This document shows, piece after piece, positions 1,063-1,841 of a stretch of 31,356 bases of DNA (position 1 is the first letter of the stretch; every line of letters begins with the position of its first letter). The DNA is from Eubacteriales bacterium (lineage in GTDB: Bacteria; Bacillota; Clostridia; Oscillospirales; QAKW01): NCBI GenBank assembly GCA_045593105.1, contig JAZNVY010000112.1:1-31356 (forward strand), read 5' to 3'. The notes beneath the pieces were generated by a model. The model worked only from the letters and a program-made list of their open reading frames with translations, did no database searches and was not told the DNA's origin. A program made the position numbers and the translations under genes.

Positions 1063-1103
1063 ATGAGAGAATGGTGCGGATCACGTCCGCACCGTTCTCT
1101 CAT
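1063..1103. repeat. 18-bp inverted repeat (hairpin) between the 59-aa ORF and the pI-like gene
   Basis: ATGAGAGAATGGTGCGGA-TCACG-TCCGCACCGTTCTCTCAT, with one non-Watson-Crick position. Confidence 0.9.
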
Positions 1104-1279
1104 TTTACCAGCTTATAAATAAATTTGAATACAGATGAAACAACGATCAAAAGAAGAAGTGCAGCTACAATGTATTCAATCATGGCACCATAATCCCAAG
1201 AACCGGAATAATTACCGTTTTCAATATAAAAGTCAGCAGTGCCCAAAACTGAGCGCAAAGCCTCTAAAACAGTTTGCAT
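1100..1279 (-). CDS. 59-aa single-TM phage protein (minor coat or pI membrane partner candidate)
   Basis: Manual translation MQTVLEALRSVLGTADFYIENGNYSGSWDYGAMIEYIVAALLLLIVVSSVFKFIYKLVK*. RBS GAGAGGTG upstream; C-terminal TM followed by lysines. Confidence 0.8.
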   Translation of the reverse strand: MQTVLEALRSVLGTADFYIENGNYSGSWDYGAMIEYIVAALLLLIVVSSVFKFIYKLVK

Positions 1280-1281
1280 GA

Positions 1282-1356
1282 TTAATCACCTCTCACAAAA
1301 GTTTGAACGACCAAAACGGCCAAAATAGCGACTAAAAAAACTACTTGAAAATTCAC
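1282..1356 (-). CDS. 24-aa hydrophobic micro-protein (minor coat pVII/pIX-like candidate)
   Basis: GTG start after RBS GAGGTGG; MNFQVVFLVAILAVLVVQTFVRGD*. Fills the gap between two neighbouring ORFs exactly. Confidence 0.6.
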   Translation of the reverse strand: MNFQVVFLVAILAVLVVQTFVRGD

Positions 1357-1358
1357 GT

Positions 1359-1469
1359 TTACCACCTCAACAATTTAAAAATCAATCCAAAGACAAACAT
1401 AAGGAGAAAAACAGCAACAAGATAATTAAAGCCGGAAATAAAAATAGACAAGCAGGGAAGAACAATCAC
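1359..1469 (-). CDS. 36-aa hydrophobic micro-protein (minor coat pVII/pIX-like candidate)
   Basis: GTG start overlaps the upstream TGA (GTGA coupling); MIVLPCLSIFISGFNYLVAVFLLMFVFGLIFKLLRW*. Confidence 0.65.
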   Translation of the reverse strand: MIVLPCLSIFISGFNYLVAVFLLMFVFGLIFKLLRW

Positions 1470-1627
1470 GCCTTTGCCCCCTTCCAGAATACAGAAATTA
1501 CAAAGCAAGTAACCATGGCACCAAGAACAATATCAGCCATAGAGATCTCTAGACCATAAGCGGTAAAAAGGGGAGTGCCGAGCAAGTCCCACAATTGAGC
1601 AATCCAGCCAATAATAGTTTGAAACAT
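1466..1627 (-). CDS. 53-aa membrane protein (minor coat candidate)
   Basis: RBS AGGTGA then MFQTIIGWIAQLWDLLGTPLFTAYGLEISMADIVLGAMVTCFVISVFWKGAKA*; amphipathic helix followed by a TM segment. Confidence 0.75.
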   Translation of the reverse strand: MFQTIIGWIAQLWDLLGTPLFTAYGLEISMADIVLGAMVTCFVISVFWKGAKA

Positions 1628-1631
1628 ATGA

Positions 1632-1841
1632 TCACCTACCTAAGATTTTATAAAGAACACCGACGCTAACAACGACAAGCATAGATGCACCCAACGCTGG
1701 AAACACAATTCCCATAAATAAATTTGGCAATGTAACGACCTTAGTCAAAATATTAAAGAGATTCAAAATAGTGTTAAGAAAATTTACAACAACGTTATAA
1801 ATAGCCTCAAAGAAAGAAATGATAGAATTTCCTAAATCCAC
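1632..1841 (-). CDS. 69-aa membrane protein (pVI-like minor coat candidate)
   Basis: Amphipathic N-terminal helix and C-terminal TM; directly downstream of the pIII-like gene, the position of gene VI in Ff phages. Confidence 0.7.
   Translation of the reverse strand: MDLGNSIISFFEAIYNVVVNFLNTILNLFNILTKVVTLPNLFMGIVFPALGASMLVVVSVGVLYKILGR

Follow-up and report, generated by a model that had tools for sequence, protein, structure and literature searches.

The 31,356-nucleotide stretch analysed here (the window; contig JAZNVY010000112.1 of the Eubacteriales bacterium assembly GCA_045593105.1) carries on its minus strand, at ~200-4165, a compact integrated inovirus of ~4.0 kb, whose ten genes are all in a single orientation. 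Five of these genes, s69, s53, s36, s24 and s59, fill the space between the gene encoding the pIII-like protein and the gene encoding the Zot/pI-like assembly ATPase (Table 1). Comparative sequence analysis confirmed that the five open reading frames (ORFs) are genuine, separately translated and conserved genes for small bitopic membrane proteins. They probably correspond to the lineage-specific minor-coat and assembly membrane proteins of the inovirus clade to which this prophage of a gut Clostridia bacterium belongs.

The original prediction, made from this sequence alone, had placed five ORFs here with gaps of 2-4 nucleotides (nt) or a GTGA overlap, and direct reading of the sequence recovered both the ORFs and their junctions. 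It had also considered such tiling unlikely by chance, and this view was borne out: the best same-strand chain of ORFs accounts for 99.5% of positions 1100-1841, against 66±12% (maximum 96.6%) in 2000 dinucleotide shuffles, none of which equals it, and against 41% for the opposite strand by the same measure. Strong Shine-Dalgarno (SD) sequences precede the genes, as predicted, although they number five and not four: pairing with the anti-SD amounts to -10 to -13 kcal/mol for all five (-12.3 kcal/mol for s69), against a background of -3.0±3.0, and SD strength is conserved across relatives. The SD of the pI gene is weaker (-6.4 kcal/mol). That four of the genes had been missed by the list of ORFs is a matter of length threshold only. 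The mechanical list gives longer forms of s36 (49 amino acids (aa), from a TTG at 1508) and of s24 (27 aa, from a GTG at 1365); however, relatives have an ATG at the positions aligned with the starts of the 36-aa and 24-aa forms, indicating that these shorter starts are correct.

Each of the five proteins contains one hydrophobic stretch, followed by a basic tail in four of them, which agrees with the mostly basic C-termini described previously; s24 ends in RGD. The charge after the hydrophobic stretch is +2 in s69 (after residue 50), +1 in s53, +2 in s36 (after residue 18) and +1 in s59 (after residue 58), where K51 and K56 are located just within the scored stretch. The N-terminal flank is net acidic in s53, in s59 and, weakly, in s69. 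Basic C-terminal tails combined with acidic N-terminal flanks fit a topology with the N-terminus outside and the C-terminus inside.

Relatives of the window phage were collected by pI-based scans (14 IMG/VR loci, 59 genome loci and 80 metagenome loci), with loci L018 and L019 as the two nearest comparisons. Searches by tblastn and then with family hidden Markov models (HMMs) detected the five genes, colinear and in the same order, in ~46 loci from metagenome-assembled genomes (MAGs), metagenomes and viromes (HMM-positive loci: 45 for s69, 46 for s53, 40 for s36, 43 for s24 and 46 for s59). The five-gene set is present in practically all relatives that have a pI identity of 42-98% and a long enough contig; the MAGs of this clade are labelled Oscillospiraceae, Acutalibacteraceae or Eubacteriales. 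At loci where tblastn failed to detect s24, the 72-83 nt between s36 and s59 hold an ORF of 23-26 aa with the pattern M-S-x-Q-V-(hydrophobic run)-F-x-(R/K)-G-(D/E). The 4-nt overlap between s53 and s36 is near-universal, usually in the form ATGA; at the remaining junctions the spacing varies between a 4-nt overlap and a gap of ~20 nt. The position of s69 directly downstream of the pIII-like gene, with a spacing of 3 nt in the window, is conserved in relatives, and L018 and L019 have an aligned ATG in place of its GTG start. In s53, residues W48 and G50 never vary. Of all five proteins, s59 is the best conserved, with 58-78% identity where pI identity is 47-70%.

Frame conservation and synonymous bias in a tblastn comparison had been proposed as a check of the original prediction, and the frames are indeed conserved, with a third-position bias and low ratios of non-synonymous to synonymous substitution rates (dN/dS). 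In the nearest comparisons, dN/dS is 0.05-0.36 for s53, 0.05-0.09 for s36, 0.11-0.20 for s24, 0.08-0.10 for s59 and 0.20 for s69. Between the window phage and L018, s53 shows 10 synonymous and 2 non-synonymous differences. Between the window phage and L019, the differences in s53, s36, s24 and s59 taken together are distributed 25/10/63 over codon positions 1/2/3 (12/6/20 in s53 and 6/2/17 in s36). The coding strand contains 43.5% T, which favours hydrophobic ORFs, and two of the five ORFs have fewer than 40 codons; one could thus imagine chance ORFs in T-rich DNA, or the debris of a larger gene. Such an origin is exceedingly improbable given the shuffling result, the starts and stops conserved over ~46 loci and the pattern of substitutions just described. 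Neither fused nor broken forms of the five genes were found in relatives, where their lengths are stable, and no fused form was apparent in a profile search with s59 among 1.84 billion proteins. A broken larger gene was rejected, the boundaries being conserved in all relatives. Sequencing runs searched for the stretch contained at most 11% of the sampled words in any run, and none of them was an RNA run.

None of the five families could be assigned to a consistent family in Pfam or PHROGs, using either single sequences or all alignment members as queries. Profiles of s69, s53, s36 and s59 gave nothing significant against PDB sequences, and s69 had no match there at E <= 10. When the five families and that of g8, the candidate major coat protein, were compared with each other by hhalign, the maximum probability was 44%, over the transmembrane (TM) helix only; judging from these alignments, no kinship links the five families with one another or with the coat family, and they are not paralogues. 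AlphaFold2 (AF2) models computed from the family alignments showed one continuous helix (residues 2-66, pLDDT 88) for s69 and, for s59, a helix (2-12) followed by a beta-hairpin (18-28) and a second helix (30-58; pLDDT 86). A Foldseek search with the s59 model retrieved nothing at E <= 0.001 from PDB and BFVD. Queries of the ESM Atlas with s59 and s69 led only to clusters of 'hypothetical protein' from Hofneiviricota and Bacillota. The best PDB sequence match of s59 was the Pf1 coat protein, but with an E-value of 0.4; an identification of s59 as a Pf1-like (class II) major coat protein was rejected on this ground, together with an hhalign probability of 0.6% against the g8 family and the beta-hairpin of the AF2 model.

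The single orientation, the short genes and the short one-TM proteins (30-90 aa) of the element are those by which inoviruses (Tubulavirales) are recognized. Short structural proteins of 30-90 aa with a single TM domain were used as a hallmark for inovirus detection by Roux et al. (2019; PMC6813254), who predicted 934 such families to be structural; four of the five proteins fit this definition exactly, s24 with its 24 aa being below the 30-aa cut-off. In pig-gut Firmicute inoviruses, published maps likewise colour 'structural genes (with transmembrane domains)' (PMC9723715).

The small genes resemble those of the Ff phages (M13/f1/fd), which also encode very small hydrophobic proteins (of 33, 32 and 112 aa in M13) on one strand, with gaps of 1-2 nt or 4-nt overlaps. 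In M13, a 1-nt gap precedes VII, overlaps of 4 nt link VII to IX and IX to VIII, and the gaps in the series III-VI-I are 2 and 1 nt; a small hydrophobic gene is present right after gene III and ahead of gene I in both systems. The five proteins would be expressed from the pIII operon by tight translational coupling, as are the small genes of Ff. The original prediction rightly stated that pVII and pIX are encoded upstream of the major coat gene in Ff phages; in M13, VII and IX precede VIII, and VI is located between III and I. In the window phage, by contrast, the small genes number five and not three, and all of them follow the pIII-like gene, none preceding the coat gene. Only 17 nt separate the ssb-like and coat genes, no gene is present there in the clade, and the small genes of the clade are all 3' of the pIII-like gene. 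Other differences from Ff are a pI devoid of TM and periplasmic parts and the lack of a gene IV. Counting pXI, Ff phages have four small membrane proteins, so that the difference in number, five versus four, is small.

Individual roles can be proposed with this comparison in mind. The proteins s36 and s24 would be initiating-cap helices similar to pVII and pIX: their genes are adjacent and coupled, and each product consists of a single hydrophobic helix (36 and 24 aa versus ~32-33 aa). Nevertheless, the Ff genes are located between V and VIII, whereas s36 and s24 are downstream of pIII, and their products share no sequence similarity with pVII and pIX. By analogy with Ff, in which pVI contacts the C-domain of pIII, s69 may be a pVI-like protein pairing with the C-terminal region of pIII in the terminating cap, although it has 69 aa and one predicted helix, versus ~112 aa and several hydrophobic helices in pVI. 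Finally, s53 and s59 would either join a cap or act at the membrane together with the TM-less pI.

The comparison between the window phage and L018 bears on the pairing of s69 with pIII. The two phages are ~94% identical in DNA sequence, except for a block at 2830-1700 of the window (L018:3210-4370) with 55-60% identity, which comprises pIII and about two thirds of s69, counted from its N-terminus. The pIII-like protein of L018 is only 37% identical to that of the window phage although its pI is 98% identical, as expected of a receptor-binding cassette. The limits of the block suggest that pIII and the N-terminal part of s69 were exchanged as one cassette, which would be expected if the two proteins touch each other, as do pVI and the C-domain of pIII in Ff. 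The same two phages also vary in a second, small patch at ~3030-3114, where the coat gene encodes the N-terminal part of its product (72% identity over this 100-nt block).

The Propionibacterium phage B5 (Paulinoviridae) resembles the window phage in its Gram-positive host, its lack of a secretin and its very small ORFs (Orf3, 32 aa; Orf4, 27 aa; Orf7, 90 aa). Orf7 directly follows the pIII-like Orf6, as s69 follows pIII (roles according to bioRxiv 10.64898/2026.07.11.737922). However, B5 has kept the Ff order, with small ORFs that precede the coat gene; its small proteins share no sequence similarity with the five, and its pI is of another type and size. Since a phage of a Gram-positive host keeps the Ff layout, the five-gene block is a feature of the lineage and not a general requirement of a thick wall.

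This last point concerns the interpretation given in the original prediction, namely that the five small TM genes point to a different design of the virion cap or extrusion machine for crossing a thick Gram-positive wall. The MAGs of the clade belong to the class Clostridia and are presumably monoderm. The absence of a secretin, the TM-less pI, the relocation of the small genes relative to Ff and the lack of known homologues for all five families would agree with this proposal; of these, the TM-less pI is the only real pointer to a physically different cap or export machine. Yet B5 retains an Ff-like arrangement and number of small genes, small TM genes differ in set and order in sister clades from similarly labelled MAGs, the number of proteins exceeds that of Ff by just one when pXI is counted, and no wall-binding or lytic domain was detected in any of the five proteins with Pfam and PHROGs. 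Thus, the prediction of separately translated small membrane proteins relocated downstream of pIII stands, whereas a special wall-crossing design is unlikely in view of B5, of the coupling already present in M13 and of the nearly equal counts. The five-gene block is a lineage variant of a known module, and the observation is right but largely ordinary.

Small TM proteins of phages often have accessory roles, and with functions unconstrained by homology one could consider superinfection exclusion, a membrane toxin, a holin-like activity or modulation of the host for the five proteins. We regard this as very unlikely, because all five genes are core, syntenic and coupled inside a structural and assembly operon over pI identities of 42-98%, and because a phage of ten genes offers no other candidates for the cap proteins.

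Uncultured Firmicute gut inoviruses, namely bajarodino virus 44 (PQ006153; locus L017), the Dulem viruses and the pig-gut 'Inovirus sp.' (PMC9723715), have a pI of the same family, with 45% identity in bajarodino virus 44. In that virus the pIII-like gene is likewise followed by a chain of small TM ORFs, several of them already annotated as 'hypothetical protein' coding sequences (CDSs). HMM searches identified homologues of s69, s24 and s59 in this virus; that of s59 escaped tblastn, which found no match to s59 in the phage collection. A 59-aa ORF at the position of s53 resembles it by eye but was missed by the s53 HMM. Bajarodino virus 44 differs by duplicated coat genes between the s59-like gene and pI and by an additional 51-aa TM ORF that overlaps the pI start, the window phage being smaller (~4.0 kb). 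The GenBank record PQ006153.1 has a 161-aa CDS at 5853-6338 on the opposite strand, while the plus strand carries the s59-like ORF (5615-5815) and two coat-like ORFs (5856-6032 and 6061-6291), the s59-like and first coat-like ORFs being supported by HMMs and the second coat-like one by ORF translation and tblastn. The opposite-strand CDS is probably not a real gene, and the coat genes are left unannotated.

Several points weigh against the assignment of the five proteins as minor-coat and assembly proteins. No sequence or fold similarity links them to characterized minor coat proteins, the searches of PDB, Pfam and PHROGs being blank. Their family HMMs score at most 6 bits against pVI, pVII and pIX of M13 and Orf3, Orf4 and Orf7 of B5, e.g., -0.6 bits for s69 against M13 pVI and <=2.7 bits for s36 and s24 against pVII/pIX and Orf3/Orf4. 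The mapping of roles is based entirely on size, position and co-inheritance. Among the five families, s59 shows the highest correlation with pI in pairwise identity (r = 0.78), but such correlations are confounded by phylogeny and gene adjacency. Finally, in L017, L095 and L098 the s59-like gene is upstream of duplicated coat genes, and it is a different TM ORF of 50-56 aa that overlaps the pI start.

The pI of the window phage, in which the Walker A motif starts at residue 7, has no TM helix (maximum KD19 1.24), and no convincing TM helix was found in pI anywhere in the clade. Two designs of pI are present among 154 related loci, a TM-less one with Walker A at residues 6-11, which is that of the window clade, and one with an N-terminal TM extension. 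The former is found in all 46 loci with s59, whereas 82 more distant relatives have a pI with an N-terminal TM extension of 27-32 residues, a coat gene directly upstream and no s59. In some loci with a TM-less pI (L034, L082 and L091), a hydrophobic insertion of ~30 residues is present around alignment columns ~185-215, where the window protein has only LLPCILPFPF. With ten genes only and a TM-less pI, membrane functions have to come from g8, pIII, the five small proteins or the host.

This raises the possibility, to which we give less credit than to the general assignment, that s59 (perhaps also s53) is a non-virion membrane half of the export ATPase acting in trans, like pXI or the TM segment of pI in Ff; the chain would then comprise three cap proteins plus parts of the machine. 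The association of s59 with TM-less pI proteins points in this direction, as does the location of its TM helix and basic tail right before the pI start, an arrangement resembling the N-terminus of a TM-bearing pI. The gene overlaps the pI start (ATGA) in ~ten lineages, and other lineages with a TM-less pI likewise have a small TM ORF that abuts or overlaps the start of pI; the identity correlation between s59 and pI would be a further argument. On the other hand, the dichotomy corresponds to a division into two clades and is just as true of the other four small families, and the ORF coupled to pI belongs to another family in L017, L095 and L098. A profile search with s59 in 1.84 billion proteins yielded 76 clusters, nearly all of them free-standing proteins of 46-69 aa; no fusion of s59 to pI was apparent by length among these clusters, seven hits of 82-406 aa not having been inspected. 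Prediction of a pI-s59 complex had low fold confidence and gave no verdict, neither for nor against binding.

More speculatively still, the clade could use a minimal secretin-less machine, in which pI has lost its membrane segment and is docked in trans by a coupled micro-protein, most likely s59, and s24 is an obligatory subunit of the virion or of its assembly. If so, no smaller complete gene set than these ten genes (~4.0 kb) would be known for a filamentous virion.

In the window, the hairpin between s59 and pI starts on the s59 stop codon and has a free energy of -31.7 kcal/mol (z = -8.5). Every relative with a gap of 41-71 nt between s59 and pI has a strong hairpin there (L019, L076, L021, L023, L079, L080, L037, L094, L090, L030, L025, L024 and L101), with differing stems and often a C(G/A)TGA loop, whereas most other relatives have the ATGA overlap or a near-abutment of s59 and pI instead. 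The hairpin could be an attenuator or an mRNA 3' stabilizer lowering pI expression, a protein operator or a signal in single-stranded DNA (ssDNA). Together with the weak SD of pI, it would hold pI expression below that of the small proteins. An Rfam scan of positions 1-4400 gave nothing close to any threshold. Another hairpin, terminator-like and with a T-run, is present between the coat and pIII-like genes (2857-2875, minus strand), at a place equivalent to that of the strong terminator after gene VIII of Ff.

Filamentous-phage assembly in Gram-positive hosts is almost unstudied, and only B5, Philemon and CAK1 have been characterized among the filamentous phages of such hosts (bioRxiv 10.64898/2026.07.11.737922). 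The five-gene finding alone reveals no new mechanism. The analysis defines five apparently undescribed conserved families of small proteins, with their exact starts and their pattern of co-inheritance, in a widespread group of gut inoviruses; among them are candidate cap proteins and a candidate membrane partner for a TM-less pI. They also carry a lesson for annotation, as tightly coupled genes can have as few as 24-69 codons and the 24-aa family is below the usual annotation cut-offs.

Table 1. Genes and other features of the integrated inovirus, in the direction of transcription, with the junction to the following gene.
Feature	Position in the window	Strand	Basis or characteristics	Junction to the following gene
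Rep, rolling-circle	3460..4098	-	Pfam Rep_OBD E = 6.5e-13	
ssb (pV)-like, 85 aa	3132..3389	-	position alone: between Rep and coat gene	
g8, candidate major coat protein, 60 aa	2932..3114	-	acidic N-terminus, TM helix, Arg-rich C-terminus	
pIII-like, 326 aa	1845..2825	-	translation; signal peptide and C-terminal TM anchor	pIII stop to s69 GTG, 3 nt gap
s69, 69 aa, GTG start	1632..1841	-	directly 3' of pIII-like gene	s69 TGA to s53 ATG, 4 nt gap
s53, 53 aa, ATG start	1466..1627	-	C-terminal motif FWKGAK(A/G)	GTGA overlap
s36, 36 aa, GTG start within GTGA overlap with s53 stop	1359..1469	-	N-terminus MI(I/V)LPCL	2 nt gap
s24, 24 aa	1282..1356	-	practically one TM helix, end (R/K)G(D/E)	2 nt gap
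s59, 59 aa	1100..1279	-	motif WDYGAM(I/L)EY; N-terminal mini-domain, TM helix, basic tail	53 nt, contains hairpin
Hairpin, 18 bp, no U-tract	1063..1103	-	inverted repeat between s59 and pI	
pI/Zot-like assembly ATPase, 222 aa	378..1046	-	Pfam PF05707 Zot E = 8e-9 (above family cut-off); phrog_197 E = 8e-15	

Among the remaining genes of the element, the 85-aa ssb-like protein has no significant family match in Pfam or PHROGs, and the g8 HMM has matches in 134 related loci. The pI protein has tblastn matches in 64 phage records, in which every listed annotated protein is named Zot or zonular occludens toxin. A terminator 3' of pI closes the cassette; the window itself begins at the contig end. 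Homology of both host flanks to those of L018 and of L161/L076 set the ends of the prophage. Phages with 70-98% pI identity fill this chromosomal site in other species of the genus. The prophage is present in one copy in its own genome, and of 29 further genomes of the genus 4 carry the s59 family, compared with none of 19 from the family's other genera, a patchy distribution such as a prophage would give. The element has no integrase and adjoins a HAD-hydrolase gene (4196-4987). At its Rep-proximal end, a palindrome with 13-nt arms (4123-4152) is 86-92% conserved in all phages at the same site (L018 and L161/L076) and is a candidate origin or attachment site.

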